64,000 nt of DNA from Dysidea avara. Its lineage: Eukaryota. Shown here one piece after another: positions 207-61,263 of the stretch. Where the stretch lies: the NCBI RefSeq assembly GCF_963678975.1, contig NC_089281.1:27857151-27921150 (forward strand). The letters run 5' to 3'. A program made the position numbers and the translations under genes. The first letter of the stretch is position 1, and every line of letters starts with the position of its first letter. Under the pieces are notes generated by a model. The model made no database searches. It was not told the DNA's origin and saw nothing but the letters and a program-made list of their open reading frames with translations.

Positions 207-264
207 CTTCTCATCTTCTTTGCTTTCTCCCACTACATATTTCTTGTCACTACGGCATCTTATC
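207..264 (-). CDS. Adaptor gene SH2 domain exon 3: (R)IRCRSDKKYVVGESKEDEK
   Basis: Acceptor acacag, donor gtgaga. Completes the split codon from the previous exon. Resembles SLP-76 SH2 NIQIRYQKESQVYLLG. The remaining C-terminal exon was not confidently located. Confidence 0.5.
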
Positions 265-3200
265 CTGTGTATATATACACCATAATGGTGAGCGTTAACT
301 GGAGTTACGCATGTACCTTAAATGACGAGTTTTTCCTGCATGCCAAATTGATAATGAATAAAATCCTAGTCTCTTCTCTTCAGCTTTTGAGGGGTCTCTT
401 ACTATGAAACAACCATCCTGATGAGAAATACATGTAAATGATTGGAAAAACGTACGCATGTGTGTGTGTGTGTGTGTGCATGCGCAGGTACGTGTCTGTC
501 TGCCCATATGCTTATTGCTTACAGTAGCTTCTTTATCAAGAGCTGCTTCTGTTGCTCTTCGATCAATTTCTCCACGATACCATGGAAACTGTTCCAATGG
601 GTTACTTGGTTTTGCCTGGGTCTGTGGTGGTGGTGCTGGCTGCTGTGAACAAAAAATAAAGCTAAAACTCAAATCCACAATTACTAACTAACACTTTTCT
701 CACCTTAGGTGCATTAAAGTTACTAAGTAGCTTATTACTATTAGGAGCATAAGTATTGCGTCTACCACCGGGACTATCCTATGATGTAATTAACAATTAT
801 ATAATGTATAATTGATAGTGTACTACAATACTCACCACTTTTGGTTCGGGTGCTGGCATTTTGGTTCCTTTTGATGGCCTAGGAGGGAGGTCTGGTTCTG
901 ACGGCTACAGCAACAAATAATTACTAGTATTTACCTCCTGAATTCTCAAATATATGACAATTCTAGTGATGCACAATACACTGTACCTGTATCTCAACAG
1001 TTGAGTGGTTGCGACAGTGTACATGTAATAGTTATACCATGGCCGTGAGGGATTTAGCTGATACATACACCCAAAGCAGGAGGGCTGCAGGCCCAAGGCT
1101 AAGGATGTATGTATCAACAAAATCTGACACAGTCATGTATAAATGATACACACACGCACGTACGCATGCACGCACGCACACACACACACACCTCAAATCA
1201 AAGGAAAGCCAGTGCATATATATATCACATATCGCACTGACTCAAAATGTTAACAAGATATACGCACTGCTACCAGTGCGTATATCTCGTTAACTTGAGA
1301 CATTGCACACCTAATAGGAATGCACACTATATCCAGAAATCATCAGATTTCTTTGATGTTATACTGTTATCCTCTTCACTTATATAGGGAATCAAGCAAG
1401 CTGTGATTGTGAGACTTAATTTTAATACATCAACAGTAGTTTGTTTTTTTTACTTTTTGTAAATGTAGCAATTAAAGTAGCATAATCTCTTAAAATTAAT
1501 AAAATCAAACTACTGTTTGATGTATTAAAATTGAATCCCACAATCACAGTTTCTTTGGAAAAATTCAATCCCACAATCACAGCTTACTTGGTTCCCTATA
1601 TAATAGAAGGGTATAGCAACTAAAGATTTTGCCAATTAGGTGAGTCTACATACTACATATTAGTTATTCCACGGGCACTCGTGCTTTGCCTGTATATACA
1701 CATTCGGGCCTGTGGCCCTCGTGCTTGTGCATACATATCAGGCAAAGCACTCATGCTCGTGGTATAACTATTACTTATAGAACTTTGTGTGGGCGAGATC
1801 AAAGGAAAAGGTGTACTTTAAATTTCATAAAGTACACTCTCAGCCGGCCAACAGTGCTTCATGACCACAAAGAGTGCTTTATTGAACGAATAAAGCACTC
1901 ATTGTGGGCAATAAAGCACAGTTGCCCACGTGCTTTAGTGTAGGTTAATAGCCTGTGGGGCTTGCACCAGTACGACTAATCACCCACGCCGGTAAAGGCT
2001 GATAGCCTCGCCGCGCTGAGTGATCAATCACCCCAGTCAATATGAGTTTTACCACTGGATTACTTTTATAGACATACCTAAATGCTTCGATGATGGGTGG
2101 GAGAAGGTAACGTTGCTGTTACGTTTGTTAGTGTAAATGGACAAGTCCTGGAGATAAAAAATTATTTCACTGTGACTCACAATAGAATCGATTGTGGGTT
2201 GCGAGCAAAACCTGCCAAAATACGCGATGAACGTCTACTATGCCAAACTATGGTGAAATATGTGTGAGTTACTTTGTTAAACTAGTTCGTGTACGTTCAG
2301 GCTGCTAATAGTTCGTGCAACGCGTGTTAATTACGAGTCCTAGTGTATGGTGAAGCTACACAACTAGAAAGTTCCATAAATCATTTAAAGCATAGCCTTG
2401 CTCGTGCTATATGAAAAATAAAGTACTCGGCATTTGGCATCGATGCTAATAAAGCACTCGGCTTCGCCTCGTACTTTATTAGCATCTCGGCCGCGCACCT
2501 CGTACTTTAATTTTCATATAGCACTCGCGGCTATGCTTTAACATATACATATCCCTCTAGGCACACTCACCTGATAGGTGAAAGAACTACAGAGCATTCA
2601 CCCAGTTCCTTTTATACATCAGTATCTAATGATCGATAGTGGTTTTAATTTAAACACAGGTTAAACAGGGTTAACTAATAGGTTGAGGTCTACACATTGT
2701 TGGAATACTCTGTCCCAAGGATATCTTAGCAGGGGCAACAATGCAATGTCAATTAAGCATACTGGTCTGTCAACAAAGAGACAGCTTGTCAACAAAAACA
2801 CATTCTAGTACACATTCCAAGGCTGGCCTATAAATATCACAGAGCAAAAACAGCCAGCACAGTCTTTGTGAGCTGAGCAGCAAGCTTGCAGCAGAATTTA
2901 CTTCTTTACTAACTTCTGAGTATAGTAAGTGTCAAACTAGATCGACCAAGTTTTACTTGCATCTGAGAATGGCCAGCGATGAATATACCTGGCCAGGAGT
3001 ACAGAGTGTAGAAAGGCTAATGTTAAGCATGGGCAGCCATGGACGGGTGGTCATGGCCAGTGTCCAGTGGTAGCAGGCAGACTGCTGTTATACAATCAGG
3101 TGTGACCATAGACGGGTGGTCTTCACAGTCGGTTGCCCGAACCAGGTCTTGTTATACACTTTGTGTAGTGCACAGCTAGCTGCCGGGTGGTACTTAAAAG

Positions 3201-6200
3201 TGTTGCTCTATTCAGGCTCTGCCACTGATTCACTAGAGTTACCACCGATAATTCTAGAGCTGTACTGATAATCGGATCAGCCACCGATATGGCATTTTTT
3301 GCCAATATCGGCATCGGTACAGAACAGTAGGCAGACCGATATCGATATTTATACAGCAATAGTTTGTACATAAACGGATTATACTATTGGTTTTCTATGT
3401 TATCCATGTGGCTGTTCAATGGCAGTGGCTTATTGCTCACTCTACAGCAAGCGCTACGCTACGAGAAGCCATACAAATATGCACAATTCTAGTGTTTGTT
3501 GCTGGAAAGCTTATCAGTCTTAAATGAAACGGTTATTATTATATAGTACCTTTGTAATATAAAAGAACAGTCACAGGATAACCAAGGAAACCTACTGTAC
3601 CAGCAAGCCAATAAAAAGCGGAGTAATGCAGAAATATCCGTTTATGGCTTCATGGGAGTATACATGAAATGTTTGTGGGTGCCTAATTATCTGGATTGCA
3701 CAATAGAAACCCACCACAGGCACAGAGTGAGCAATGAGTATGTCCACATGTTGTAGAAAGGTAAATGTACCATGAAACCACCTAACTTCAAAGGCAAATT
3801 CCAGGGTACATATCTTATAAACCCTGGCTGGCCATGGTACATTTAAGTTAAACCATGGCTGGGTATGGTACATTTAAATTAAACCATGGTTGGTCATGGT
3901 ACATTACATATACCATGGCCTTGATATCTGATGAGGTAACGTTGTTTGTTTTTATAAGAATCCTGGCAGTATTCGATTGTGGGAGTTTATTATTACTCAC
4001 GTGATGAAAACCATGAACCCGATTTTGCATTCTACAGCACTCATACGAAGGCGATTCAACACCCTTACCACCCTATAAGTTGACAAACGGAAGTTTAAGG
4101 TGAGAACTAGTGTCATGGTTAATTTACAATCGCGCGTCCGCGTGTTTGACTACATACCACGCCCACTTTTCGTATATCACGAGGTAACCACTCTACAGCA
4201 AAGTTTACCCTCTGGATGTTTAAAAAACGTTGTAAACAGTGGTTAAACGATGTAGCAACTTTGAAACACTTGTTAAATCGCAAAATTGAGTGTTTCCGTG
4301 ATATTCATGGGATTTGCCCGTTTATGTTAACAAACGTAACTGCAACGTTACTTGCTGCTGACCCACAATCAAATTTTACAAGACTCTCTATATAATAAAT
4401 CCAGCAGGTTGCCTCGTATTGGCTTGGGTGATTGGTCGCCCACCACAGTAGGCTATTAGCCTACATGGTACATATTAGTTGTATCACGTGCCCTCGGGTA
4501 CATGATACAACTATTACATGTACACATTTGCATAGATTATCTATGACTTTTGTTTGTATTAAATGCAAATATCGGATCGACAGTGGGCTGCAGCAAGGGG
4601 TATCAAAAAATGGGGGGAGCTGAACTTGACCATTTATGGCTGCTGTTTACCTTCCCAACTCCCTGCAACTCCTGTCATCAAGCAAACATATCAAGGAGTG
4701 GACCAAGGGTCAAAAGGAAAACGACCAACACTAATTAAGCTTTACACAAAGCACCACAAATATTGCGATTGTGGGATCCGGTAACATTTTGTACTAAAGT
4801 AAGCCTATTAACTTTGCTATTGGGACAGCAAGTTAATATATTAGTTAAGACTACAAGTTACTCGCCTATTTAAATCTAGTTGTCCTCTTTGTGTTGTTCT
4901 TGATCTGCTCAATGGCTGACACATGGTAGATAGAAACACACATCTATGCATTTCTCAAGCAATTATTTTAGTGATTATTCATCGCTTAGTAACTCTCTAC
5001 TAGTCGAAACTTAGCAACTATGCTGAGTCTAGCCTAACTTGTAACCCCAAACCCATAATTAAACGCTCCATGTCACTTAAATATAACAAGTCAAAGCATA
5101 TCATATCTTTAAACTGGTTGGGCATCAAAGCCATGAGCAAACCACATTCCCATGGCAATATGTGAGTTAAACCCCAAGCGGCGCCTTTGAACACCCACAC
5201 ATATATAGTAAATCCTGGTCACCAAAAATTCTCGACTTTATTAACATGTACAGTGACTTGTATTACTATAATAATTTGCATTGCATGGTTATTAAGAAGA
5301 GGGACCAAAATTATGGATTGTATTGGCTTCAATAATCAGGTGGTCTTATTAATGAGGTATGAAGTACACCTTAGCTATGTTTGGGACCTACTTGACATGG
5401 TCACTATAATGAGGTGGTCTTATTAATGAGGTCATGAAGTACACCTTAGCTATGTTTGGGACCTACTTGACATGGTCACTATAATCAGGTGGTCTTATTA
5501 ATGAGGTATGAAGTACTCCTTCCTCCCTCGAACAATTATTCAATGGAACTCCCTCCAAATTCCACCAATAAATTAATGTCTTTTGTGGTCAATATAATTA
5601 TTATCAAACGATGCTAGCTATGTTTGGGACCTACTTGACATGGTCACTATAATGAGGTGGTCTTATTAATGAGGTCATGAAGTACACCTTAGCTATGTTT
5701 GGGACCTACTTGACATGGTCACTATAATGAGGTGGTCTTATTAATGAGGTCATGAAGTACAGTTTAGCTATGTTTGGGACCTACTTGACATGGTCACTAT
5801 AATGAGGTGGTCTTATTAATGAGGTCATGAAGGACACCTTAGCTATGTTTGGGACCTACTTGACATGGTCACTATAATGAGGTGGTCTTATTAATGAGGT
5901 CATGAAGTACAGTTTAGCTATGTTTGGGACCTACTTGACATGGTCACTATAATGAGGTGGTCTTATTAATGAGGTCATGAAGGACACCTTAGCTATGTTT
6001 GGGACCTACTTAACATGGTCACTATAATGAGGTGGTCTTATTAATGAGGTTATGAAGTACACCTTAGCTATGTTTGGGACCTACTTGACATGGTCACTAT
6101 AATGAGGTGGTCTTATTAATGAGGTCATGAAGGACACCTTAGCTATGTTTGGGACCTACTTGACATGGTCACTATAATGAGGTGGTCTTATTAATAAGGT

Positions 6201-9200
6201 TATGAAGTACACCTTAGCTATGTTTGGGACCTACTTGACATGGTCACTATAATGAGGTGGTCTTATTAATGAGGTCATGAAGGACACCTTAGCTATGTTT
6301 GGGACCTACTTGACATGGTCACTATAATGAGGTGGTCTTATTAATGAGGTCATGAAGTACACCTTAGCTATGTTTGGGACCTACTTGACATGGTCACTAT
6401 AATGAGGTGGTCTTATTAATGAGGTCATGAAGTACACCTTAGCTATGTTTGGGACCTACTTAACATGGTCACTATAATGAGGTGATCTTATTAATGGGGA
6501 AACCGTTAAATGAGCCTTCAATGTATAAACTACATTTGCTTACACGTCGAATTTCTCGTGGTGGCAATGATGGAGAACCCTGATGGACTTGTGGGCTGGG
6601 TGCAGCAGGAAACTAGCGATGATGTGACACATGGCAAAGACAACGAAAGAAAAATTATCATACTTTGCCAGGTATTTGTGGAGGTGGATCATAATTCTCT
6701 TCACTAAAGTCCTGAAAGAAATAAAATGACAAAATATACACACACACATGCACACACCTCTTGGTCATTGTTATTATGCATCATGGGTGGCTCATATGTA
6801 TCTTCCTCTATCTGGAGACAGTGATATATAATAACTCACATGTACAACAGCCAACCAAAGCAACACAACCACAGCCCCACCCTTTAGCTCACCAATTGCT
6901 GATGAATATCAGGTGGATCATAATTATCCTCCTGTAGAGACAAGCACAACATTACCAGTTAAGTAATGTTGTCAGGAGCCCATATCCACCTCAGGACATG
7001 TACATATACACTTATAAACACTTATATGCAGGGTCTTCCTTACAGAGCAGCAGGGTGATAAAGCAAAACTTTACCAAGTCTAAAATGGTTGTTGGTTCTG
7101 CCATATGGCAGTCAGTTTAAAGAGGGTGGCCACTAAGTGAAGTTTCACTGTACTAATCAAATCATATACACGGTATATCTTGCGTATGCAAAATACATAA
7201 CACAACAGAGTTGTCACTTACATCAATCGGTACACTTGAAACTGGTGGAGGCATTGGAGGACGCTTGCCAATTGAGGGAGAAACAGCTGGCTGTTTGGCA
7301 CCAAATCGGGATGGCTTAGTGTTACGGTCGGGCAATCGAGGAGCAGAACTATCATCCATCCGTGGCGGTGGCAGCTCATGGCGGCTAGGCAAGGCAGGTG
7401 CATTGTTTACTTTAACTTGTGGCTTGGGACTATGCGGTAAAGTCTTTGCTTTGTAATCAACAGGTGGCTTGCTCAAAGCTGGGTTACCACCCTGCTTCCT
7501 ATCAAAACTACCACCCCACCTAGGTGACTTTGGTGGCTCTTCCTCAGTGCTACTAGCAGAAAACATTTTCATACGATCTTTAATACTCGTTCCACCAGTT
7601 TCTGGTTGATCTGATGCTTCCACAGGTGGCAGGGGTGGCGGCTTAAAACCTTTCTTGTCTATTTTCTGTTGCTTTTCCTCCTCTTTAGCTCTTAACTGGC
7701 GTAATTCAGGAGAGATATCTCCTTCGCCAGATTTAGATGTCTTGCGTTGCCTTGCCCTTTCATACCGGTCCCTCAAATGAGAAGGAATGTGGTCCAACTT
7801 TACTTCTTCTTCATAGTCTGCTGGCTGTTGTGTGCCTTTGACTGGAGCTAGGTTCCGCGGTGGAAGCTGCGGGCTTACATTGTCACTCTTTGTGAAGGCA
7901 GGCTTAACCGGTAGCTTGGGACTGGCAGGTCGCTTCACTGGTTGCTCAGGTACTGCAATAGTAGAAGGTGAATCAAACTTTTTGCCAAAGTTTCCAGAAA
8001 CAGTTTTGTTGTTTGATGAAGGAAGATTGGAGTTTATGTCATGTTTAGGAGCTGCTGTATTGTTTTCAAACATTTTTCGTTGTTCAAAAACCTTCGATGA
8101 TGGTTTGGTGGCAGAAATGTTTCTGCTTTGAGATGTGGGGAGAGCATGTGTATCAGTTTTGATAGGAGCCCTCATCATTGGAGCCTTGGATATAGGCTGC
8201 CGGAAAATAAACACCATTACACATATACAAGGGCAATTTAATTAACAAAAACACACCTAAACACACCACACTAAGCTACTACATGCACACAAACCACCAT
8301 GGTTAACATTCTTCATTTACCCAGAAAAAAGGTAGCCATAGTAAGTCTGGTAACCCTTACTTGTGCGGTTGTCGGCATTGTATCCTTCACTTCAGGAGGA
8401 GGTGGTTGATAAGCTGGAGCGTGCCCTTGAGCCTCTGTGAGATGAACATTAAAAACTATCATTTACAAAACTAATATTGAACAAGCAAGTAAACCAGCTA
8501 AGCCACTCAAGTTTGTATCATGAACCATGCAATTATGTGTTTTATGGTAATCGACTCACCTTCTGGCGGCACATCGTATATGTCATCCTTACAATAGACC
8601 ATGCAATTACAACAGTATGATAACAAATAATGAACTCACCTCTGTGAGTGTTATGGTGGGGGTAAAAGTGGACACATGGGCAATGATAGACATATAAAGG
8701 ATGTTGGGTTAGTAAGGGACACAATCTCTTACCGTTTCCGCCATAATCTTCTTCTTGGGGAGGATAAGAGTATTGAAATTCAGGGGGAACGTCATATACA
8801 TCTCCTTCATCATCATCATCGTATTCGTCCTAACAACAAGTGTGTTAATTGTAATATTAAACACACATACATATACACACACAGAGCAAAGCCTTCAGCT
8901 GCCGTGCTAGCACGGTCACGCCTACCCAGTGAACCAGCACTGGGGCACCTGTGTGCTACTCAGGTGCTAGGAGTCAGCGCAGGCAAATCCTCCTTGGGCA
9001 GGACTAGTAACCTGCAGGAGGCCCACAGGTGAAGGTGTGGCCCACCTGGACCTTCACCTGCCGTGTGAGACATGGACAGTTGATATTTGCTTTCCCAGTT
9101 AATACCAGGTATCCATTGATGTTACAGCTGGGTGGACTGCTTTCCCAGTTGACGCCAGGCAACCAGGTCCCCATTTAAACAGCTGGGTAGACTGGAACAA

Positions 9201-12200
9201 TGTGAGTACAGTTTCTTGCTCATGGAAACAACAACGCCAATTTGGCATAACTGAGCATCGGACCAGGAACCTTTTAATTACCAAGCTGATGCTAGCCACT
9301 TGGCTATGCTGCCTCACTCACACACACACACATGCACACACGTACAGCACACAAACACACACTAAATGCACTACACTACATACAAACACACACGCACTAC
9401 ACACACTGACACACACATGAACTACATACACACACACTGCACACACGTACTACACTATACACACACATACACTCACTAAATACTGCTGTTCTAATGCAGA
9501 CTGTTGTGGAGTATTATCATCCTAATACACACATATTACAACATCATTACACAACAAGACCATAAATTTTTTACCCTCAAACCAAATGCATGAAACTTGG
9601 CCTGTAGCATCCTAATAGTATCCTATGATAAAATATCACATAATCATCCCAGATCACAAGCACATAACACTCACATTTTTCTCATCATGCTGAGGTGGTG
9701 CACCTGTAACAAAGGAAACAATGAGGAGTTGTAAGAGTGAAGCACATCTCACATACCTCCTCCTGTGTCATCGTCAAATCCCTCCTGTTGGGGGAATGTA
9801 CATAATTTATTGTGTAGTGGGTGTGTTTGCGTGTGTGTGCCTTCCTCACATCATCATCGTCATAGTCAGTATCATCGAAAGAGTCATCATAGTACCCATC
9901 ACCATCTTCCTCTTGTCCTACATCATTATATCCTTATTCATAGGGACCAATAAAATATTTTAATTATATTAGAGATGTACCACACCACACCACACCACAT
10001 ACACATGCACACACAACACATTTGTGTGACATACACAAGTACACCTTTCTTGTACAAACCAGTAGATTACATACATACCCATGCTATAGTATGTACAAGT
10101 TGACAGCTAAAAATGAAAGTTTCTCAAGTGAATTAACATATCACCCAACCAGATGAATAGTGGTGACAGTAAACATGTCAACAACAGACACTTGTGGTTT
10201 GGCTCCATTACAAGTTCGGGAATAGGTTGTAATGGATCCTGTACTTTATGGCTTCCCCCCAGAGGAAATGTATGGTGAAAATTTGAATGGCCATAAATAT
10301 TATGTCATGCAGTTGAACAAAAAAATTTTGAAATATTTTTAGTGGGTCAAGCAGTGCTACTAATGAGCCAAATTTCAAGATTGTGCGTAATTCCATTAAT
10401 GAGTTTTTACATGTTTTTGAGGATCCAGCTCAACGCGTACATACTATACAGGTGTGCCCCATGAAGCAGAAACAATTGTTCATGAAATAGCTTTTTGTAA
10501 AGTGTAATTCCGTCAATGAGTTTTTAAAATGTTTTTGAGGATCCCATGCATGTGGACTTGCCCAGACTACTCACACGATTACTCACACGATTACTCACAT
10601 GATTACTCACACGATTACTCATAGTACCTTCATACCTCAGAAAGCTCCAAACTCAAGAAGCACCATCAAGGGAAGCAATTGAAGCCATTAACAGTAGACT
10701 CGAGCAATAGCCCGGGCTTCTATTTGAGACCAGGCGTTTATCTTCCAAAGATGCTGGAACCCCCCTGGATTATAATTGAGACAGGCGTTTAATTGAATGC
10801 GGCTTTTGTACAAAGAAATACGGTACGTACTCCAGTCTTGGTAAAGTAAGTCCTTGATAATTTTACTGGAACACTACTTTTTAGCATACATTAAAGTTTA
10901 TATTCTTCACAGTGGCCAAAAATCCATTGCCCCTTAAGTTATTAAAGTACAAGGAAAAATTAGATTAGGGATAAAAAAAAGTAGCAAACAAGGAAATAGC
11001 TAAAAAGTGGCGAAACAAGGAAACTTCAGTCTATAACAACCATGACTGAATTAGGGATTAAATGTGAACTAGTATATCTGCAGGTGTAGGCAACCTTCCT
11101 TGTTTCACTACTTTTTTCTTTGATCCCTAATCCAACTTAAATTCCTAATTTTTCCTTCTACTTGTTTCTTAACATAATTGACAAATGAACCATCACACAC
11201 CACAGTAAAAGAAAGAATGGCACCAGGAATGTCATAAAAGTAATTTTGCGTCAGAACATGCACCCCAATAATCAATTACATAATGGAAAGGGACAGTACA
11301 TCAAGTAATTATTTACTACATAATTCACCTAAAACACAGCAAAAGGCTCTGCCTGTATGGATGCTTCCCTAAGATACCTACACACATACAAAACACCAGC
11401 TGCCCTATAGTCAAGTACAAGACAAAGCAAAGCCATCGGTGATAAGTACTTTTGTCTTCTGTATAGACTACTCTACTACACACAACCTCTATAACTGGTC
11501 CTAACAGAGCACTACAAGAGAATTTTCAGTTTGACAGGATCGGTGCATAAATACTTCATTGATATATGTATACTGGTGATAATACAAAAACAACATTTTA
11601 CTTGTATAAAAGATATAAATAATAAATCAACACATACGTAGTCGATTGATCAATTACTTGTTCAAATACCAAAGACAGAAATACTGTCATGCACATCTGA
11701 CTTCGGTCACAATATTGTGTAAGCCACTGTATACAAAGCTGTACAAGTATCAAGAATTGCTGAAACAGCTTACAGATATAGAGAGAGCCACTACATATTC
11801 TTGTGTGCAATAATAGTACAAGCCCTTCTGTTACAAACATTTACTCAGCATAACCAATAGCACAGAAGAAGACTAGGAAAGGCAGCGGTGTACCATGCAA
11901 TACATTAGGTACTGCAGTGCTTGTGATATTGTTTTTAAAAGGGACACGCCTGACCTACCAAACCAATGGAATCTGGCCTACAACACGAGCAGGGATCTAA
12001 CCCCGGACATTAGCATTAACAGCTCATCGTGCAAATGTTGGAGTGATTAGGTTTTTGAATCTAAACAGCATTCTTGTGAGGTGTTCAACAAACATAACAT
12101 ATTTTGTGTGCAGATAATTTACATTGCTCCATCCCGTATGCATATGATACATCTTTCATTACACAAACATGCACCACTTGCTGTCAAATATGGCTGCTGC

Positions 12201-14110
12201 ACAGAAGTGAGAGGGAATGAATACCATAACACGGACACTTTGGGATCAACTAAAGTGCTCTGACTATCGAGATGTCTGGATTATCCAGGTAAGTTTATGT
12301 ATTAATTAATGGGCTACTTTGGAGCTTAACTGGCTCACTCACTTTTAGGAATTAATAAAAAGCTCCATTGTAAACATAAGAACTCACTGCTAGTTAAATA
12401 ACCAAATGCAGTGTGCATGTTTAAGTGTCAAATGGTTATCTACTATACTAAACAGCCTCAAAAGTCACAACTTTTGGGTTTGTGTTTAGGTTAGCTTCAA
12501 CAGAAATAGACATACTAATCAACATACAGCATTATGTTTGAATAACAGACTCAATCAGCACTTCAAGATCACCAATTCATCAATTTTAAGTATATATGTA
12601 TGAGACAAAAAAAATTCTTTCTCATACAAAATCAGCGTGCATTGGAAGAATATACTTCTAATTTGCTATACGCTTACAAATTTTTCATATCCATTATCAT
12701 GCATGCACAAGACACATGTATAAAGCCTACAATATTGAAATTTCCTACTTATTTCAAATTCCATGCACAACTGCATAATCACATACCATCCATATACTCG
12801 TCATTCGCTGTCGGTTTTGGTCGCTCTGGTAATGGTGGCGGCGGCGAAGTACTATCTTCATGTCTGCTACTACGATGTTTTCTCCTGGTCTCACTACAGA
12901 AACAGGAGGATATATTCACAAATCTTTACAATATATTTCACTCACTTGTGACTTGATCTTTGAGGAACTTTACCTAGTGCACTGCCAGGAAGTCTAGCAA
13001 TGGCTACCTTAAGACCACTACATTTCATAACAAACAAAAAAAATACAAAGAATAGCTAGTGAGTGTAGATGTCTTACTCTCTCTTGTTAGCATCAGACAA
13101 GCATGGATATGCCCGTAATTGAGATGCTGTCATGCTTAGCAACGTGTTGCCATCAACACGATTACTCCGAAAGTCTTGAGCACAGTCACCAAATCCAACC
13201 TGACACACATACAACACAAAATAACATCAACCATAAACAAATTAGAACTACATAAGTTATTGACAATGGAATTAGATGTATAGTACAACAGGTGTATTTA
13301 CTGGACTTACCACAAATACAATTTCCTTCTATTCAATTATACACATAAAACTCCCTTACACAATACTTGTAAAATGACAATAAATTTACTCCATAAAAAG
13401 AATTTGTCTACACTTCTGGTACTACTTAATACACTGTCAAAGAACCAACAGTTGATACAAGGGCTTCACGTGACAGAATTAAAATTATGATCAATTGCTA
13501 TTTTACGACATGATGCCTCCCAGCACACATTTAACAAGTACATCAATATTGTGAAACCTTTCATGACAAACTCTTAGAAATTAAGGCTAAGAAAAAGATT
13601 GGAGTCTCAACAGGTTCAGCTGAATTGGCTCCATACAATAATAACCTGCATGGAAGAACAGCATTTAGCTGAATGCAGGAAGTCTAAATAGACGATATGC
13701 ACACTTTATTACTCGAACGAAAAATGATCAATTAAGCGTAAACGGCGCAAAACTCAACGGTAACTTAAAAGCAGAAGTCCCATACAAAAGCATGGGAAGC
13801 AAATGCAGCTCGAGCAACAACTCACCACTCGAGCTAAGGGCAGGCCATCTTGCTTGCCATACACTTCTTTCTGTGCTGCGCCGTTTACACTTAATTGATC
13901 ATTTTTCGTTCGAGTAATAAAGTGTGCATATCATCTACTAAAAAGTACACCTCTAAAGGAGGAAATTAAGCCCCTTACATTTTGCAGAAAATTCTCAGTC
14001 CAGAAGTGTTATAGGAAAGGTTTCACTGCTTGTTTGCTTACCTCCTGGAGCCACAGTGCCACATCACGTGCTCCCCAACCCCTGATCTTCTGTTCTGGCT
14101 GATTGTTCAT
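207..14110 (-). CDS. Multi-exon gene for an SLP-76/BLNK-family-like adaptor (SAM, acidic YxxPP exons, proline-rich region, SH2). The 3' end is probably outside or at the very start of the window.
   Basis: Exons read directly with GT-AG boundaries and consistent phases (listed as separate features). N-terminal exon MNNQPEQKIRGWGARDVALWLQE followed by VGFGDCAQDFRSNRVDGNTLLSMTASQLRAYPCLSDANKR is SAM-like. Micro-exons carry DDIYDVPPE, GDVYDVPPEFQYSYPPQEEDYGG, EDNYDPPD, EEDTYEPP and EENYDPPP. The large exon has PPLPP and PRLPDRNTKPS (RxxK). SH2 exons are FPWYRGEIDRRATEAALDKEAT / DGCFIVRDPSKAEEKRLGFYSLSIWHAGKTRHL / RIRCRSDKKYVVGESKEDEK. Not all internal exons between ~8.2 and 12.9 kb were resolved. 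Confidence 0.6.
317..417 (-). CDS. Adaptor gene SH2 domain exon 2: DGCFIVRDPSKAEEKRLGFYSLSIWHAGKTRHL(R)
   Basis: Acceptor tttctcatcag, donor gtacat. 101 nt, ends in phase 2. Contains the FLVR-type phosphotyrosine-binding arginine (FIVRD) and the Y.LS motif. Confidence 0.7.
523..642 (-). CDS. Adaptor gene SH2 domain exon 1: QPAPPPQTQAKPSNPLEQFPWYRGEIDRRATEAALDKEAT
   Basis: Acceptor ttgttcacag, donor gtaagc. 120 nt. WYRGEIDRRATEAAL is the canonical SH2 start (W[YF]hG.I.R..AE.LL). Confidence 0.7.
1385..2545. repeat. Cluster of long palindromes/hairpins sharing the motif aataaagcactc / gagtgctttatt
   Basis: Inverted repeats at 1395-1555 (~45-bp arms), 1683-1760, 1885-1945 and 2395-2545 (~65-bp arms, gccttgctcgtgctatatgaaaa...ttttcatatagcactcgcggctatgc). 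Confidence 0.6.
3835..3935. repeat. ~35-bp tandem repeat x3 (aaccatggctgg.atggtacatttaa.tta)
   Basis: Direct repetition. ORF-track entries 3592..3873 and 3848..4030 are translations of this repeat. Confidence 0.7.
5335..6490. repeat. 75-bp minisatellite, ~15 tandem copies, with one interruption at ~5515-5625
   Basis: Unit gtggtcttattaatgaggtcatgaagtacaccttagctatgtttgggacctacttgacatggtcactataatgag is repeated with few substitutions. It lies in the large intron of the adaptor gene. Confidence 0.9.
6664..6711 (-). CDS. Adaptor gene micro-exon DFSEENYDPPPQIPGK
   Basis: Acceptor ctttcag, donor gtatga. 48 nt, phase 0. Splices in frame to the SH2 exon at 642. Confidence 0.55.
6758..6811 (-). CDS. 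Adaptor gene micro-exon IEEDTYEPPMMHNNNDQE
   Basis: Acceptor tctccag, donor gtgtgt. 54 nt, phase 0. YEPP motif as in SLP-76 tyrosine sites. Confidence 0.6.
6893..6931 (-). CDS. Adaptor gene micro-exon EDNYDPPDIHQQL
   Basis: Acceptor ctctacag, donor gtgagc. 39 nt, phase 0. Confidence 0.6.
7222..8196 (-). CDS. Adaptor gene large proline-rich exon (325 codons) with PPLPP and an R-x-x-K (PDRNTKP) motif
   Basis: Acceptor ttttccggcag at 8198-8197, donor gtaagt at 7221-7216. 975 nt, phase 0 in and out. Low-complexity P/S/K-rich sequence. The PRLPDRNTKPS segment resembles the SLP-76 Gads-binding RSTKP motif. Confidence 0.65.
8733..8829 (-). CDS. Adaptor gene acidic tyrosine-motif exon: DEYDDDDEGDVYDVPPEFQYSYPPQEEDYGGN
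   Basis: Acceptor ttgttgttag, donor gtaaga. YDVPP motif. A nearby 28-nt micro-exon 8587..8560 encodes DDIYDVPPE (acceptor ttgtaag, donor gtgagt). An acidic exon around 9950..9860 encodes QEEDGDGYYDDSFDDTDYDDDD (donor gtgagg). Phase linkage between these exons is not fully resolved. Confidence 0.5.
12946..13017 (-). CDS. Adaptor gene exon: (D)GLKVAIARLPGSALGKVPQRSSH-
   Basis: Acceptor aaatgtag, donor gtgagt. Phase-consistent with the preceding exon. Followed by an exon starting after ctgtttctgtag at ~12900 that encodes ...RRKHRSSRHEDSTSPPPPLPERPKPTANDEYMDG (donor gtatgt ~12774). Confidence 0.5.
13078..13199 (-). CDS. Adaptor gene exon: VGFGDCAQDFRSNRVDGNTLLSMTASQLRAYPCLSDANKR (SAM domain continuation)
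   Basis: Acceptor tgtgtgtcag, donor gtaaga. 122 nt, phase 0 in and phase 2 out. The next exon 13017..12946 (GLKVAIARLPGSALGKVPQRSSH, donor gtgagt) keeps frame. Confidence 0.55.
13672..13935. mobile_element. MITE-like element with ~60-bp terminal inverted repeats
   Basis: gtagatgatatgcacactttattactcgaacgaaaaatgatcaattaag... at the left end and its reverse complement at the right end. Located in an intron. Confidence 0.6.
14042..14110 (-). CDS. Exon 1 (start codon) of the adaptor gene: MNNQPEQKIRGWGARDVALWLQE, donor gtaagc
   Basis: ATG at 14110-14108 (minus). 23 codons, then GTAAGC. N-terminal half of a SAM domain (W..DV..WL pattern). Confidence 0.6.
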
Positions 14111-16643: not shown

Positions 16644-18680
16644 ATGGCACTACGTGGGTATTTACTGACAACCGTTGTTACTGGATCATTGGCTGTGTTA
16701 GCCAGTTACTATTTTAATCGCACACCAGAAATACGACAAAATCGTTTCAACTCTGCTTTTGTACCAGCGCAAAGTCAGGCAAGATGGTACGTTGATGGAC
16801 AGGACTACATGTCAGCTGTGGCGGACGCCATTGAGGCAGCTTCAGATGAAATCTTTATCACAGACTGGCAGATGAACCCACACATATTTATGAAGAGACC
16901 AGATACAGGAGTTGATAGTTTGTATTGGCGTCTAGACAAGATGTTACTGAGGAAAGCCTCGAGGAAAGCTGATCAAGGCGGTGTTAAAATCTACATACTA
17001 TTGTATTGGGAGTCAAAGGTACTTGCTGGCATGGATCATGGAAGTGATTTTGTTCAAGTTGTTTTAAAGCATGATAACATCAGTGTGCTTGTCCATCCAG
17101 ATCTAAATACAGCAATCCATCATGGTTTTGAAGGTACTGGTTGGTGGAGTCATCACGAGAAGGTTGTTGTAGTTGATCGTAAAATTGCTTTCGTTGGTGG
17201 AATTGACCTTTGCTTTGGTCGTTGGGATACGCACAGTCATGAACTAGTCGATGATTATCCTGTCCATCCATGTGTTGCTGGAAACAACAATGATTGTGAT
17301 CGATCTGAAGGAAAGGATTTGAAATACTCTCGTTGGATAGGTAAAGACTATGGAAATACCTTTTATGGAGGAGTTAGGACTCAATTAGATCAGTCAATGG
17401 TTGATTATATAGACAGGAGTGAAATTCCTCGAATGCCATGGCATGATGTAGGGTGCTCATTTACTGGTCCACCGGTCCAAGATGTCAGTAAGCATTTTAT
17501 CCAGAGGTACAACAGTCACTCTGCACAGCCCTGGTGGAAGATTTGGGGTGATGAGCCGTTGTACCTTGAAGACAAGGAATATTCTGCAACTCCAGATTCC
17601 ATTGGTTATGACGTTCAGGTTCAAGTACTCCGATCAGTAGACCAGTGGTCAACTGAAGAAGACCACGAAGCTTCTATATACAATGCTTACCTTCATGTCA
17701 TTAATGAATCCAAGCATTTCATCTATATAGAAAATCAATTTTTTATTTCATCACAAAAAGGAGTTTTCTTAAAGGTTAAAAACCAGATATTGTCTGCTAT
17801 AGCTGATAGGATTATTCGTGCATACAAAGATGATGAAGATTTTCATGTTATAGTTGTCATGCCACTAAAACCTGAGTTTCCTGGGGAATGGGAGGCAGAA
17901 AGTGGAAAGGACTTGAGATCAGTTAGCTACTGGAATTATTTATCAATTTACAGTGGAGAAGATTCTCTATACAAGAGACTAGAAAATGGAAAGATTCCTC
18001 AAGACATCATACCTCAGTACTTCAATGTGTATGGACTACGTACCCATTGTACTCTCAATAATAATCTTGTGACAGAAATTATTTATGTTCACAGCAAGAT
18101 GATGGTTGTGGACGATAGGGTGGCTATAATTGGTTCAGCTAACATCAATGATCGTAGCATGCTAGGCTACAGGGATTCAGAAGTAGCAGTGATAATCGAA
18201 GATAGAGAGATGGTTGATGGCAAGATGAATGGCCAACACTTTGAAGTAGGGAAATTCTCCCATAGCCTGCGATGTCATCTAATGAGGGAACATCTTGGTT
18301 TAATGGATGATGAGGAATATGTAACTTCTGACATGAAAGTGGATGATCCTTTAGCTGCTACCAACTTTCTCTTGAAGGTAGCCCAAAGAAACAGTGCCAT
18401 TTATGACCGGGTGTTTGGAGGTAGGATCACTCCCAGTGATCATGTGTGGAATTTAGAAGATCTCACAGAACGATCTGCAATTCCTGGTCTTGTTAACATT
18501 GATTTAAATGAAGCTAAGAAAGAACTCGATAATGTTCAGGGCAGTATTGTCAGTTATCCAGTATTGTTCTTAAAAGACATACTCAAGCCATCCTATTTAG
18601 ATGTGTTAGGTGTGTATGTGGATACTCGTGGCCGTTCAAAAACACTGAATTTTGATGAGCCTGGGACTGTGTTTGTTTAG
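16644..18680 (+). CDS. Phospholipase D with PLD1/2-type catalytic core and two HKD motifs; 678 aa, intronless, N-terminal transmembrane helix, no PX/PH domains
   Basis: ATG at 16644, stop at 18678-18680. HKD1 is WSHHEKVVVVDRKIAFVGGIDLCFGRWDT. HKD2 is IYVHSKMMVVDDRVAIIGSANINDRSMLGYRDSEVAV. The segment FITDWQMNPHIFMKRP...RLDKMLLRKA matches the PLD1/2 core. N-terminal MALRGYLLTTVVTGSLAVLASYYF is hydrophobic. A TATA-like tataataagtatat lies ~30 bp upstream and aataaa ~150 bp downstream. Confidence 0.85.
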   Translation: MALRGYLLTTVVTGSLAVLASYYFNRTPEIRQNRFNSAFVPAQSQARWYVDGQDYMSAVADAIEAASDEIFITDWQMNPHIFMKRPDTGVDSLYWRLDKMLLRKASRKADQGGVKIYILLYWESKVLAGMDHGSDFVQVVLKHDNISVLVHPDLNTAIHHGFEGTGWWSHHEKVVVVDRKIAFVGGIDLCFGRWDTHSHELVDDYPVHPCVAGNNNDCDRSEGKDLKYSRWIGKDYGNTFYGGVRTQLDQSMVDYIDRSEIPRMPWHDVGCSFTGPPVQDVSKHFIQRYNSHSAQPWWKIWGDEPLYLEDKEYSATPDSIGYDVQVQVLRSVDQWSTEEDHEASIYNAYLHVINESKHFIYIENQFFISSQKGVFLKVKNQILSAIADRIIRAYKDDEDFHVIVVMPLKPEFPGEWEAESGKDLRSVSYWNYLSIYSGEDSLYKRLENGKIPQDIIPQYFNVYGLRTHCTLNNNLVTEIIYVHSKMMVVDDRVAIIGSANINDRSMLGYRDSEVAVIIEDREMVDGKMNGQHFEVGKFSHSLRCHLMREHLGLMDDEEYVTSDMKVDDPLAATNFLLKVAQRNSAIYDRVFGGRITPSDHVWNLEDLTERSAIPGLVNIDLNEAKKELDNVQGSIVSYPVLFLKDILKPSYLDVLGVYVDTRGRSKTLNFDEPGTVFV

Positions 18681-19112
18681 TAATGGCTGTAGCAAGTATG
18701 ATGCATTACAATTTATAATCTTGTGAATTTTATGAAGTCGTGTAGTTAAGTAGTTTTTTAGGCTTTTGGCATTTCTTTTTCTACCCCACCATCCTTGTAA
18801 TTTCTGCATGTGCATCCATATTGTGTATAAATAAACCTAAGGCAGCATGTGAGCAGTTGCAATGGTCACACTGCTAGTCATACATTTCAACAAATTTTAG
18901 TAATCAACTGTTCTATTAGAGTAGATGATATCACTTTTTTGTATATAGGCATTCTGATATCTTAAAGATTTTTAGAACAAAGCCACTTCTTTGGGTAAAA
19001 TTTTGGCTATAAGGCCTAATTACACACCGTATTAATTTCTCATCTAGCAATGCAAGCAGGTGGATGTTTAATATTATAGTTCACAAGTCATGATGCAACT
19101 TTTAGTCTGTTA

Positions 19113-19660: not shown

Positions 19661-20701
19661 TCAAGCGATCGCTATTGCCTTCTCTATCCATTGAGCACAC
19701 TCAGCAAATTTACTGCCAGAGACAGACCTCTCCTGGAAGAATTTCATCAGACTTTTGTATCTAGCCAGAAATTTGAACTGAATGGCAAATTGTAGTTTTC
19801 TGAGACACACAGGACACAGGAAGGAAAATGCCCGGTCACCCTCTTCAGCATTATTACTGCCGTTCATTAGACATGAGAAGTAGACACAATGCTGTAGTCC
19901 AAACATGTGTCCAATCTCATGAGTTAAAACTTTAATAGCTCTCCACTGTAATAACTGGTATTCGTCTGGTGTTAACTCATGTAAAGTGCTAACTTCAATA
20001 CTTTTAGCACCATTGAAGAAGTTTGGGTGATGTCTTGCAAAGCTGAACACTCCAATCCTATCCTGCAACATTGCCCTACCAAATACGAAGTTCCAACTTT
20101 CCTTTGGGTATAGATCAACCATCGTGACTCCCAAGACGCAGTAGGCATCTTCTGGAATCATGTTTTTCATAAAAGTAAATATCCCAGGAACGTGGAGTTG
20201 TGGACGTTTGACACCTTCACTGACTGTGTGGTTTCTAGTGCTACACTTCAACTTTGCCAAGGGGACTTCTGTCAGTAATTTGACATTCATGCTAGCAAAA
20301 AATAATTTTGTATAAACCTCCAAGTCACTGAGAAACGTCATTCCTGAACAGCCCCCGTCTTTTGGTTTAGCGGTAGCTGAATGGCTTCCTTGGCTTAAAA
20401 ACTCCCCCAGGGGAAGAATGTATATTGTGTTTCTTGTGCTAGTGACATCGTTCCTGCTCAGTTTTGTCTGCCATGTTAAGAACGGTTCCGGTGGAGTTGG
20501 GTGGTTTCTCAGCCAGTCGTCAGGACCTGGCTTACCAAGGTGAGGAAATAACACGTGTGTACCGTCAGTACACTTCTTCAAGTATTCGTTAAACCGCTTG
20601 AACTTCTTTTCTAGCGCGAAATCCAAGTGCAACGCGTCCGCTATCTCTCTCACATCTGGCGAGCCGGAGGCATCTGGTGTGATAAATTCCTTTGTGGCCA
20701 T
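19661..20701 (-). CDS. Archaemetzincin-like zinc metalloprotease (AMZ family), 346 aa, intronless
   Basis: ATG at 20701 (minus), stop at 19661. Zinc-binding HEIGHMFGLQHC followed by FSCLMNGSN and CPVCLRKLQ, the metzincin HExxHxxGxxH plus Cys-rich signature typical of archaemetzincins. Confidence 0.8.
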   Translation of the reverse strand: MATKEFITPDASGSPDVREIADALHLDFALEKKFKRFNEYLKKCTDGTHVLFPHLGKPGPDDWLRNHPTPPEPFLTWQTKLSRNDVTSTRNTIYILPLGEFLSQGSHSATAKPKDGGCSGMTFLSDLEVYTKLFFASMNVKLLTEVPLAKLKCSTRNHTVSEGVKRPQLHVPGIFTFMKNMIPEDAYCVLGVTMVDLYPKESWNFVFGRAMLQDRIGVFSFARHHPNFFNGAKSIEVSTLHELTPDEYQLLQWRAIKVLTHEIGHMFGLQHCVYFSCLMNGSNNAEEGDRAFSFLCPVCLRKLQFAIQFKFLARYKSLMKFFQERSVSGSKFAECAQWIEKAIAIA

Positions 20702-58707: not shown

Positions 58708-59280
58708 CTGTAGTGTTGTATGAATCATTTGTAAAGTGACTGTCACTGTGGAGATACTTATAACTACTGTATCTGTTTGTAAAACCTGTGTAACAAAGAC
58801 ACCTTCAGACCAGCCTGATTTTCTTATGTACTTATTGACTATATACTATTGTATAGGCAGAAATTTTTGAGGGGTGACATTTTCACAAAAAACGTGAAGC
58901 AACTCTGCATTTTTTTCTTCACAGAATTCTACAAACAATCAAAGGTGATACACCACTTGTGAAATTTGTAAAAATTTCATCCCTCAAAAATTTCCACCTA
59001 GCTATATGATAGTAAACTGGGACTTTCACCAAGAATGTAGGTAGGTTATGTCTTGAATCTCCACATGAACATAACATGTTCCATTGCTCAGAGATAAACA
59101 TTTGCAAATGTATAAATTTGTAATTACACTCATCATACAGCTAGTGTTAGAGATTACTAGCTAGTGTTAGAGATTACTAGTTTACACTTACTGGAGCAGG
59201 CACATACGTATCCAGTGGGAGGAGTTTCAAAATGGCACCTAGTAGTGCTGGTATACCATGACCTGTCAAACAAAACTAAT

Positions 59281-59466
59281 TGCTATGTATGTATGTATGT
59301 ATGTATGTATGTATGTATGTATGTATGTATGTATGTATGTATGTATGTATGTATGTATGTATGTATGTATGTATGTATGTATGTATGTATGTATGTATGT
59401 ATGTATGTATGTATGTATGTATGTATGTATGTATGTATCATGTATGTATGTATGTATGTATGTATG

Positions 59467-59498
<32 letters not shown>

Positions 59499-59620
59499 TG
59501 TATGTATGTATGTATGTATGTATGTATGTATGTATGTATGTATGTATGTATGTATGTATGTATGTATGTATGTATGTATGTATGTATGTATGTATGTATG
59601 TATGTATGTATGTATGTATG

Positions 59621-59650
<30 letters not shown>
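59281..59650. repeat. (TGTA)n / (ATGT)n tetranucleotide microsatellite, ~90 units with three small interruptions
   Basis: Direct reading. All ORF-track entries 59164..59691 (both strands, MYVCMYVC... / HTYIHTYI...) are translation artefacts of this repeat. Confidence 0.95.
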
Positions 59651-59652
<2 letters not shown>

Positions 59653-59879
59653 AGACTTGATCTGATAATGAATCGTGTGACCATGTATTGAAACAGTAAA
59701 CTAATTTAATACAGAGTTACCTTTTGTGTGCTATAAATTGTACAATTGTGGAAAAATATAATTATTCAGTTGGTCAGAGTAAAGAGTTTTCTAAAGTGCT
59801 TAGCTTCTCACTAACAACTCTACATTACACATACTAAGTATTTTTGTACAAACACACTCTTTTGATTCATAGGGAGCTC

Positions 59880-60596: not shown

Positions 60597-60815
60597 TTTT
60601 TTTAATGGGTGTGGCCACTTACCGCATAGCCTAAATATTTCGAGGTTGAGCAATGTTGCTAAAAATAAAATTTTCGCGGATTTGCAAACACTCTCAAATG
60701 TATTAGACTCTAGATATTTCAAGGCTAAAATTTTCGCTGATAAGCCCCGAAACCGCGAAAATTTTCCCCCTCGAAATATTTAGCCTATACGGTATTGCCG
60801 CCACACCCATTAGTT
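60597..60815. mobile_element. MITE with ~45-bp TIR (aatgggtgtggccacttaccgcatagcctaaatatttcgagg)
   Basis: The left terminus at 60597-60640 mirrors the right terminus at 60771-60815. Internal aaaattttcgc motifs. Ends ~50 bp upstream of the ATG at 60864. Confidence 0.6.
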
Positions 60816-60863
60816 TGTCGCCGGAAAAGGGCAGCCCTGGGGAAAGGTAGCAACAACGGAAAA

Positions 60864-61242
60864 ATGGCTGACAACCCATATTTTGCTGCATTTGAAAAGT
60901 ACTATGAACAATTGGAAAAGGCCCTGCCGATGGACTCGATGTATCCTACCTTATTAAGTAAAGGTTTACTACGTGATCCAGGGCTTGCCGAGAATGTAGA
61001 GAAGGCGACAACTGACATTGCTAAAGCGCGGGTGTTTTTGGGATCGATGAGACCCGGGCTACAAATCGGTGGAACGGAAACATTCGAACTTTTTCTGGAT
61101 GCAATGACTGAATATGAGATGAAAACTAATAAAGAAGAAATAACGATTCTTTTGAGCAGAATAAGGCAACACTTACCATCACCCAACTCGCCCTCGCCCC
61201 CAAGTAAACAAGTGGAACAAACAGGACCCACTCCAGGACCAG
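60864..61242 (+). CDS. Candidate first coding exon of a gene with a tentative death-fold (CARD/DED-like) all-helical N-terminal domain: MADNPYFAAFEKYYEQLEKALPMDSMYPTLLSKGLLRDPGLAENVEKATTDIAKARVFLGSMRPGLQIGGTETFELFLDAMTEYEMKTNKEEITILLSRIRQHLPSPNSPSPPSKQVEQTGPTPGP
   Basis: The ORF-track start at 60795 is inside the upstream MITE; the first ATG is at 60864. A possible donor gtatag lies at 61243. The apparent ORF continuation 61264-61349 is the terminus of an inserted MITE. The ~90-aa helical segment has a hydrophobic periodicity compatible with a six-helix death-fold, but the assignment is weak. Confidence 0.35.
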
Positions 61243-61263
61243 GTATAGCTATATGGTGTAGCT

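Follow-up and report, generated by a model that had tools for sequence, protein, structure and literature searches.

A putative sponge counterpart of the SLP-76/BLNK adaptors in the demosponge Dysidea avara

Invertebrate members of the SLP-76 (LCP2)/BLNK/CLNK group of adaptors have been described in amphioxus, where Slp76 was cloned as a complementary DNA (cDNA) and studied (PMC5431462), and in starfish, where a BLNK-like transcript was confirmed by reverse-transcription PCR (PMC11593052). Full-text literature searches returned no paper specific to SLP-76 or BLNK in sponges or cnidarians. Here we analyse a 64,000-nt stretch of the genome of the demosponge Dysidea avara (assembly GCF_963678975.1, contig NC_089281.1, positions 27,857,151 to 27,921,150 of the forward strand; hereafter the window), on whose minus strand a first-pass annotation, made from the sequence alone, had proposed an adaptor of SLP-76/BLNK type. 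The analysis supports that interpretation. The gene very probably encodes a cytoplasmic phosphotyrosine scaffold of 831/832 residues, corresponding in the sponge to the ancestral form of the vertebrate SLP-76 (LCP2), BLNK and CLNK adaptors. Its SAM domain, acidic tyrosine exons, proline-rich exon and SH2 domain join in frame in one annotated protein, itself a computed model, in an order that had been likened to that of SLP-76; the succession of SAM, proline-rich region and C-terminal SH2 was also seen in full-length relatives.

Gene model and exon structure

The window consists of eukaryotic DNA with a G+C content of about 38%, short introns and CA microsatellites. A protein search with the concatenated exons of the first-pass annotation matched a D. 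avara RefSeq protein at 96% identity, identifying the gene as the one encoding XP_065921049.1 (831 amino acids (aa), isoform X2) and XP_065921045.1 (832 aa, isoform X1). Both isoforms are named "serine/arginine repetitive matrix protein 1-like" in RefSeq and have precomputed Pfam SAM and SH2 assignments attached. When concatenated, 22 minus-strand coding exons between window positions 14110 and 207 yield the exact translation of residues 1-798 of XP_065921049.1, in a single reading frame kept across all of them without a stop. Direct joining of the exons first proposed breaks the frame at 12787/8829 and 8733/8587, and mapping of the RefSeq protein solved both breaks. Position 207 is the end of an exon and not of the gene: 22 of the 23 coding exons lie inside the window, and the terminal one, encoding the last 33 residues (PFDSVADLIKHHKKTPLLLKSGGSTPLTCIPRS, then a stop), lies about 511 nt past window position 1. 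It was located at 18686-18787 in an independent D. avara assembly (L004) that is 99.56% identical over 14.3 kb. A single A/G difference from this second assembly, at window position 9521 in exon 9, replaces Asp182 with Gly (D182G); the remaining exons are identical.

The coding exons within the window are listed below, in the order of the transcript; "added" marks those that the first-pass annotation had missed.

14042..14110, minus strand: exon 1, ATG, MNNQPEQKIRGWGARDVALWLQE, start of SAM; phase 0->0; exact match to aa 1-23, GT donor
13078..13199, minus strand: exon 2, SAM core VGFGDCAQDFRSNRVDGNTLLSMTASQLRAYPCLSDANKR, 122 nt, phase 0->2; Pfam SAM_1 covers aa 11-53
12946..13017, minus strand: exon 3 (added), DGLKVAIARLPGSALGKVPQRSSH, 72 nt; completes SAM helix 5 (aa 60-72)
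12787..12893, minus strand: exon 4, 107 nt; basic stretch, PPPPLPERP (first PxLPxR motif), DEYMD
9850..9917, minus strand: exon 5 (added), QEEDGDGYYDDSFDDTDYDDDD, 68 nt, three tyrosines in acidic context
9757..9784, minus strand: exon 6 (added), EGFDDDTGGG, 28 nt
9675..9703, minus strand: exon 7 (added), APPQHDEKN, 29 nt
9575..9622, minus strand: exon 8 (added), DTIRMLQAKFHAFGLR, 48 nt, phase 0-0
9477..9521, minus strand: exon 9 (added), DDNTPQQSALEQQYL, 45 nt, phase 0-0
8733..8829, minus strand: exon 10, DEYDDDDEGDVYDVPPEFQYSYPPQEEDYGGN, 97 nt, phase 0->1, five tyrosines
8560..8589, minus strand: exon 11, (E)DDIYDVPPE, 30 nt, phase 1-1 in RefSeq, needing a non-canonical TA acceptor
8361..8434, minus strand: exon 12 (added), AQGHAPAYQPPPPEVKDTMPTTAQ, 74 nt, phase 1->0; conserved in L001
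7222..8196, minus strand: exon 13, proline-rich, 975 nt = 325 codons, phase 0-0; PQLPPR, KPPPLPP, PALPSR, PRLPDRNTKPS
6893..6931, minus strand: exon 14, EDNYDPPDIHQQL, 39 nt, phase 0-0; conserved in L001
6758..6811, minus strand: exon 15, IEEDTYEPPMMHNNNDQE, 54 nt, phase 0-0; conserved in L001
6664..6711, minus strand: exon 16, DFSEENYDPPPQIPGK, 48 nt, phase 0-0; conserved in L001
6544..6612, minus strand: exon 17 (added), FPAAPSPQVHQGSPSLPPREIRR, 69 nt, phase 0-0, PSLPPR motif
836..904, minus strand: exon 18 (added), PSEPDLPPRPSKGTKMPAPEPKV, 69 nt, PDLPPR motif; after a 5.6-kb intron
704..778, minus strand: exon 19 (added), DSPGGRRNTYAPNSNKLLSNFNAPK, 75 nt
523..642, minus strand: exon 20, first SH2 exon, (Q)PAPPPQTQAKPSNPLEQFPWYRGEIDRRATEAALDKEAT; acceptor at 639 (isoform X2) or 642 (isoform X1), NAGNAG
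317..417, minus strand: exon 21, second SH2 exon, DGCFIVRDPSKAEEKRLGFYSLSIWHAGKTRHL(R), 101 nt; FIVR arginine; Pfam SH2
207..264, minus strand: exon 22, third SH2 exon, (R)IRCRSDKKYVVGESKEDEK, 58 nt

L001, to which several of these entries refer, is a homologous locus from a Joint Genome Institute (JGI) metagenome and represents a related sponge or a paralogue. The first-pass exon list had left out five small exons between 9917 and 9477 (GYYDDSFDDTDYDDDD, ...QQYL), as well as those at 8434-8361, 6612-6544, 904-836 and 778-704. Its 325-codon proline-rich exon was recovered as described, at 8196-7222, with exactly 975 nt and phase 0-0. All the peptide motifs it quoted lie in minus-strand frames where they had been placed, except for HLRIR, which does arise by splicing of HLR to IRCR and is not contiguous in the DNA. 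The contiguous motifs map as follows.

8802-8758, minus strand: DVYDVPPEFQYSYPP
8584-8561, minus strand: DIYDVPPE
6931-6908, minus strand: EDNYDPPD
6808-6785, minus strand: EEDTYEPP
6702-6679, minus strand: EENYDPPP
7638-7624, minus strand: PPLPP
7341-7309, minus strand: PRLPDRNTKPS
582-538, minus strand: WYRGEIDRRATEAAL
417-394, minus strand: DGCFIVRD
363-346, minus strand: FYSLSI
245-225, minus strand: KKYVVGE

The splice junctions of the model bear directly on whether the SAM, proline-rich and SH2 exons could instead belong to two or more genes fused by the annotation pipeline. The single non-canonical junction among the 21 belongs to the intron 8732-8590, which reads GT..TA in the RefSeq model, and introns of 2.9 kb and 5.6 kb separate the blocks of exons. 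Such a fusion would also be in keeping with the newer Strongylocentrotus purpuratus RefSeq models, which split SAM-only and SH2-only products, with a second D. avara locus annotated with the N-terminal part only, and with the computed nature of the model. Set against this, the other 20 junctions are GT-AG and one frame runs through 22 exons without a stop; the same layout is found in full-length proteins of many phyla, including the cloned amphioxus cDNA (PMC5431462), and L001 keeps the order of exons 12 to 22 within 6 kb. We consider a fusion of separate genes very unlikely, and treat the locus as a single gene of SLP-76/BLNK type.

The second D. avara locus lies on another chromosome-scale contig and encodes XP_065893772.1 (P0007), a protein of 173 aa that is 83% identical to aa 1-123, covering SAM and the basic/PPLP exon. 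This locus may be a paralogue or a truncated duplicate, and L001 may be its equivalent or come from a different species.

SAM and SH2 domains and relatives across animals

A Pfam scan of the full protein returned SH2, SAM_1 and SAM_2 only. Both domains proposed by the first-pass annotation scored above their cut-offs, SAM_1 with 35.1 bits on the hand-assembled exons and 30.1 bits on the full protein (cut-off 23), and SH2 with 43.5 and 47.3 bits, respectively (cut-off 21). In an AlphaFold2 model of aa 1-90, with a mean predicted local distance difference test score (pLDDT) of 79 and values of 85-91 over aa 11-70, the region folds into the five SAM helices preceded by a short N-terminal helix. 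The last of the five, at aa 60-72 with a pLDDT of about 85-87, straddles the junction between exons 2 and 3, and the domain, placed at first in the exons starting at 14110 and 13199, also needs exon 3 (13017-12946). Superposition of the model on solved SAM domains gave 1.0-1.4 A for 65 residues, and Foldseek assigned a probability of 1.00 to matches with SAM domains, that of LCP2 (2eap) among them. The N-terminus is therefore predicted to form a complete five-helix SAM domain. Profile and fold tests did not discriminate an LCP2-specific kinship of this domain, SARM1 matching as well.

The SH2 domain occupies aa 726-810 of 831, at the C-terminus of the protein, and covers profile positions 1-77 of 77. 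It keeps the FIVR arginine and is followed by a family-typical tail, PFDSVADLIKHH..PLLL..GGST.LT. The three exons first assigned to this region were confirmed as exons 20-22, and the terminal exon beyond the window is needed in addition. When a family SH2 profile built from 18 family SH2 domains, the sponge one included, was compared with the PDB, BLNK (2eo6) scored 109.6 bits and the next single domain about 51, a margin of about 58 bits. A simple neighbour-joining tree, computed without support values, groups the D. avara SH2 domain with those of the sponges Sycon and Oopsacas, adjoining the cnidarian ones, within a clade that also includes vertebrate domains of SLP-76 and BLNK type. The tandem SH2 domains of PLC-gamma-like type branch outside this clade, and both SH2 domains of a supposed outgroup protein (P0022) landed inside it. 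Word-indexed searches for homologues, run both with the isolated SH2 domain and with an alignment of the SH2 domains, returned nameless fragments only.

An exhaustive HMMER search of 1.84 billion protein representatives produced 438 hits. Most of the best full-length hits that were checked combine an N-terminal SAM domain, a proline-rich middle and an SH2 domain at the extreme C-terminus. Ten of these were looked up by name, and they include B-cell linker protein-like entries in the scallop Argopecten, the sea urchin Strongylocentrotus and the coral Pocillopora, a lymphocyte cytosolic protein 2 (LCP2) in the spider Parasteatoda, an "extensin-like" protein in the starfish Acanthaster, the cloned Slp76 of the amphioxus Branchiostoma belcheri (AQZ26729.1), and others that are misnamed or unnamed. 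Two further sponge proteins, KAI6650454.1 of Oopsacas minuta and XP_065184742.1 of Sycon ciliatum, are already named BLNK-like, through automated annotation of fragments or short models. Pairwise, the D. avara SH2 domain is 38% identical to that of amphioxus Slp76 (E 3e-21), with which the SAM domain also aligns (E 2e-08), and 36% identical to that of a vertebrate SLP-76-type protein (E 4e-17), the tail SVAD.I.H..TPLLL..G being common to both.

The RefSeq name would make this protein an SRRM1-like splicing co-factor, and its long low-complexity region, rich in Pro, Ser, Arg and Lys, is the feature that fits such a role. Pfam matches in the complete protein are confined to SH2 and SAM, with no PWI domain, so the name is misleading and mirrors nothing more than a middle part rich in proline, serine and arginine. 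SRRM1 does not figure among the names of the relatives that were looked up: most bear BLNK-, LCP2- or Slp76-type names, and the rest are 'extensin-like', 'uncharacterized' or 'hypothetical'. Names of this kind usually stem from proline-rich compositional similarity, and the starfish orthologue was likewise 'extensin-like' (PMC11593052). A splicing co-factor is exceedingly improbable.

Several observations weigh against assigning the gene to the SLP-76/BLNK family. The SAM domain is not specifically SLP-76-like, as SARM1 scores as well or better with both the single sequence and the profile, and the sponge SH2 domain taken alone prefers BLNK by a narrow margin among PDB entries (BLNK 46.7 bits, Syk 43.7, Nck1 43.4, N-terminal SH2 domain of PLC-gamma-1 38.6). 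The central 325-residue exon had no similarity detectable by the HMMER search beyond close sponge relatives. The motif PRLPDRNTKPS within it, taken at first for a Gads ligand, has no proline at R-4, and 3.4% of shuffled sequences contain [DN]RxxKP by chance. Finally, the RefSeq entry is a computed gene model with a non-canonical GT..TA junction at 8732-8590. The generic SAM domain, the narrow SH2 preference and a central region not alignable to other phyla would also suit an independent assembly of SAM and SH2 by domain shuffling in sponges, giving an SLP-76-like layout of separate ancestry. Yet searches with either end domain lead to one set of proteins, with the two domains arranged in the same order, in cnidarians, echinoderms, molluscs, arthropods, amphioxus and vertebrates; the post-SH2 tail is common to the sponge (LKSGGSTPLTCIPRS) and to coral (LRSGGSTSLTAACPVK); and the family profile picks out BLNK by the margin given above, with the tree placing the three sponge sequences together within the family clade. 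Convergent shuffling is accordingly judged improbable, and shared descent with the SLP-76/BLNK/CLNK adaptors remains the preferred explanation. The vertebrate split into SLP-76, BLNK and CLNK came after the sponge lineage arose, and the sponge gene is therefore not an orthologue of SLP-76 alone.

Docking motifs, micro-exons and neighbouring sequence

About 15 of the 23 tyrosines in the protein lie in acidic contexts outside SAM and SH2, such as DEYMD, GYYDD, TDYDDDD, DVYDVPPE, DDIYDVPPE, EDNYDPPD, EDTYEPP and EENYDPPP. The six-frame translation of the 64-kb window contains five matches to [DE].Y[DE][VP]P, each on the minus strand at 6.7-8.8 kb and within the gene; shuffled sequence averaged 0.07 matches and never had more than 1. 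Similar motifs are present in relatives from other phyla and in the vertebrate SLP-76-type sequence (DYESP, DYEPP). PxLPxR, a class-II SH3 ligand consensus, is found six times in the long disordered proline-rich region, in the 975-nt exon and flanking exons (PPLPER, PQLPPR, PALPSR, PRLPDR, PSLPPR and PDLPPR), where 5000 shuffles averaged 0.03 copies and never had more than 2; three [RK]xxPxxP motifs occur in the same exons. The capacity of these predicted ligands to bind SH3 domains in general is well supported.

The first-pass annotation had singled out PRLPDRNTKPS as a match to the RxxK ligand of the Gads SH3 domain. The Gads site of SLP-76 is PSIDRSTKP, with the core DRSTKP, and DRxTKP in the sponge motif, which L001 preserves, agrees with this core and with VDRTKKP in the hit of vertebrate SLP-76 type. 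The motif also overlaps one of the six PxLPxR copies, and relatives from other invertebrates carry either PPxRPxKP or no similar motif. The Gads-type RxxK reading of this candidate ligand is not established.

In the substrate domain of p130Cas the most frequent motif is YDVP, and the N-terminal SH3 domain of Crk has the consensus PxLPxK; YDVP and PxLPxR would suit Crk- or Nck-type adaptors as well as Grb2/Gads. The same gene might hence act through Crk/Nck-type docking (pYDVP, pYDPP; PxLPx[RK]), as a Cas-type scaffold rather than a LAT/Gads-coupled SLP-76. Its two D[VI]YDVPPE motifs and six PxLPxR copies, with PRLPDRNTKPS as part of that series and without the R-4 proline of SLP-76, argue in this direction, and no LAT-like molecule was found even in amphioxus (PMC5431462). 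The spacing of DR.TKP is, on the other hand, identical to that of the SLP-76 core and conserved in L001, YEPP and YDPPP resemble the DYEPPP Itk-binding site conserved in amphioxus Slp76 (PMC5431462), and Pfam finds neither an SH3 nor a Cas C-terminal domain. We regard Cas-type docking as possible, though on balance doubtful. The two readings, Cas-type and Gads/SLP-76-type, are not mutually exclusive.

The tyrosine motifs had been described as lying on separate phase-0 exons of 28-54 nt. This applies to three consecutive phase 0-0 exons of 39, 54 and 48 nt, each with one [DE]xY[DE]PP motif, and does not extend to the 97-nt exon 10, of phase 0->1, or to the DIYDVPPE exon, of 30 nt and phase 1-1 in RefSeq. 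Phase 0-0 micro-exons measure 39, 54, 48, 69, 69, 75, 48 and 45 nt in all. If a canonical AG is used instead of the annotated acceptor, exon 11 starts at 8587, with 28 nt and phase 0->1; the sequence around this acceptor is identical in the second assembly. Exons 10 and 11 would then both run from phase 0 to phase 1 and be usable only one at a time, so that these two exons, each with one D[VI]YDVPPE motif, could be mutually exclusive. A search of metagenome contigs for spliced RNA across the exon 10 junction, with a 20-mer that can arise only by splicing, gave two matches, both due to chance and unrelated, and homologues of exons 10 and 11, which would allow the odd acceptor to be compared, were not found on the L001 contig.

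The annotated variation in D. avara is restricted to a tandem NAGNAG acceptor (cagcag, window 639-642), whose alternative use at 642 or 639 adds or omits one glutamine (Gln707) and is the sole difference between isoforms X1 and X2. In relatives, RefSeq isoforms differ by short segments bearing acidic tyrosine motifs: ESDQEDYDQFEVGDEE in Argopecten, VGVEEETYEVFH and DESAQHIEEEY in S. purpuratus, and EGDFDETYEVPTEQKISSYGD in Acanthaster. The earlier suggestion that splicing could tune the number of phosphorylation sites is thus plausible for the family, and the variation annotated in D. avara includes no such segment. A broader proposal, namely that from sponges onward single phosphotyrosine docking motifs have resided on their own short, frame-neutral exons, with splicing setting the number and kind of docking sites, is speculative and, in our view, rather unlikely.

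Comparison with L001 revealed 78% amino-acid identity in exon 13. Across the four micro-exons at 6931-6544, DNA identity is 86% in an alignment free of indels, with AG/GT retained; in the introns that separate them it falls to 54% and indels are numerous. Downstream of exon 17, the 5.6-kb intron contains a 75-nt minisatellite at 5615-6496 (11.8 copies, 96% match), with 2.6 more copies at 5332-5521, and its homologue in L001 measures only about 0.35 kb. A 45-nt block in this long intron (window 5208-5252, L001 4930-4973) is 82% conserved. As a candidate unannotated micro-exon (5252-5208) it was rejected, having stops in its frames and no splice sites, and it may be a regulatory element or a chance match. 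The sequence of exon 18 (PSEPQLPPRPSKGTKMPAPEPKL) occurs twice in L001, at 5083-5157 and 6406-6459, through either a local duplication or an error of assembly. The intron that separates exons 20 and 21 contains a (CA)n microsatellite (window 440-520), and so does its homologue in L001 (about 6700-6850).

The remainder of the window contains several other features. Two long uninterrupted open reading frames (ORFs) on the plus strand, 16644-18680 and 21160-23052 (678 and 630 aa), encode similar phospholipase D proteins (PLDc/PLDc_2), and flank a minus-strand ORF at 19661-20701 (346 aa) for an M54 archaemetzincin-type metallopeptidase (HEIGHMFGLQHC). At least seven mutually related ORFs of about 120-160 aa (…TYRVIINE.DR.DCPLAG…GYFIESINGV…CYWTLS…) are spread over both strands between 27489 and 53911 and form a tandem gene or domain array; one of them has a weak, sub-threshold match to DUF4430 (20.2 bits, cut-off 23.8). 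A long tetranucleotide-type microsatellite at 59164-59691 reads as (CMYV)n and (HTYI)n ORFs on its two strands, which are not genes. A plus-strand ORF of 184 aa at 60795-61349 (MADNPYFAAFEKYYEQLEKALPMDSMYPTLLSKGLL…) has no Pfam match and may be an exon of another gene.

Proposed function and comparison with known adaptors

By analogy with SLP-76 and BLNK, as summarised in PMC5431462, a receptor would activate a tyrosine kinase of Src/Syk type, which would phosphorylate the acidic tyrosines. The resulting phosphotyrosines would serve as docking sites for SH2 proteins of the Vav, Nck/Crk, Tec-family kinase and PLC-gamma types, and Vav has been reported to originate in choanozoans (PMC6562523). 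The PxLPxR motifs could constitutively hold SH3 adaptors of Grb2, Gads or Crk type, the SH2 domain, with its FIVR arginine kept, could bind a further phosphoprotein, and the SAM domain may promote self-association or clustering. Together, these modules would nucleate a signalling complex.

Under this interpretation, a scaffold known chiefly from lymphocyte signalling in vertebrates is placed in a sponge, where the full set of modules already follows the order of vertebrate SLP-76, and the SAM, proline-rich and SH2 layout is put at the base of animals. The SAM domain has been stated to have "not emerged until bbslp76" (PMC5431462), a statement that the predicted SAM and SH2 proteins of sponge, coral and echinoderms contradict. 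The assignment also corrects a misleading RefSeq name, and offers a simple system for asking what role a pathway of Syk type, or of immunoreceptor tyrosine-based activation motif (ITAM) type, plays in an animal without lymphocytes. The gain is limited by the orthologues in two other sponges that were already automatically named BLNK-like. The gene is an ordinary, though evolutionarily early, member of a family already known in invertebrates, annotated but misnamed.

Among known systems, the likeness to p130Cas/BCAR1 is one of functional analogy only. It concerns the repeated YDVP-type motifs in a disordered region, a feature of Cas proteins. The sponge protein differs from these in having SAM and SH2 domains and in lacking, by Pfam, the N-terminal SH3 and Cas C-terminal domains, and does not belong to the Cas family.

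With BLNK (SLP-65) the protein shares multiple YxxP docking tyrosines and a proline-rich region. The BLNK structure 2eo6 is the best single-domain PDB match both to the sponge SH2 domain and to the family profile, and invertebrate relatives are mostly auto-named 'B-cell linker protein-like'. The B-cell context is absent in a sponge. Mammalian BLNK is not known to have a SAM domain; a BLNK-type vertebrate sequence (P0041) does carry one.

The two other sponge proteins are the nearest neighbours of D. avara in the SH2 tree. XP_065184742.1 of Sycon combines SAM, an acidic region and SH2, and KAI6650454.1 of Oopsacas has EDYDTPD, DSYDLPD and DTYDVPD motifs together with SH2. Both are considerably shorter models (349 and 283 aa, respectively), without the 325-residue proline-rich exon and the PxLPxR series.

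Compared with SLP-76 (LCP2, including bbSlp76, AQZ26729.1; PMC5431462), the D. avara protein is longer and has many more acidic tyrosines and six PxLPxR motifs. Part of its tyrosine motifs follow the proline-rich exon, its Gads-type motif agrees only in the DRxTKP core, and the amphioxus protein has a WW domain that Pfam does not find in the sponge one. The two nevertheless share an N-terminal SAM domain, acidic [DE]Y[DE]xP tyrosines, a central proline-rich region and a C-terminal SH2 domain that is 36-38% identical, with TYEPP and NYDPPP in the sponge corresponding to DYEPPP in SLP-76-type proteins and with the tail SVAD.I.H..PLLL in common.

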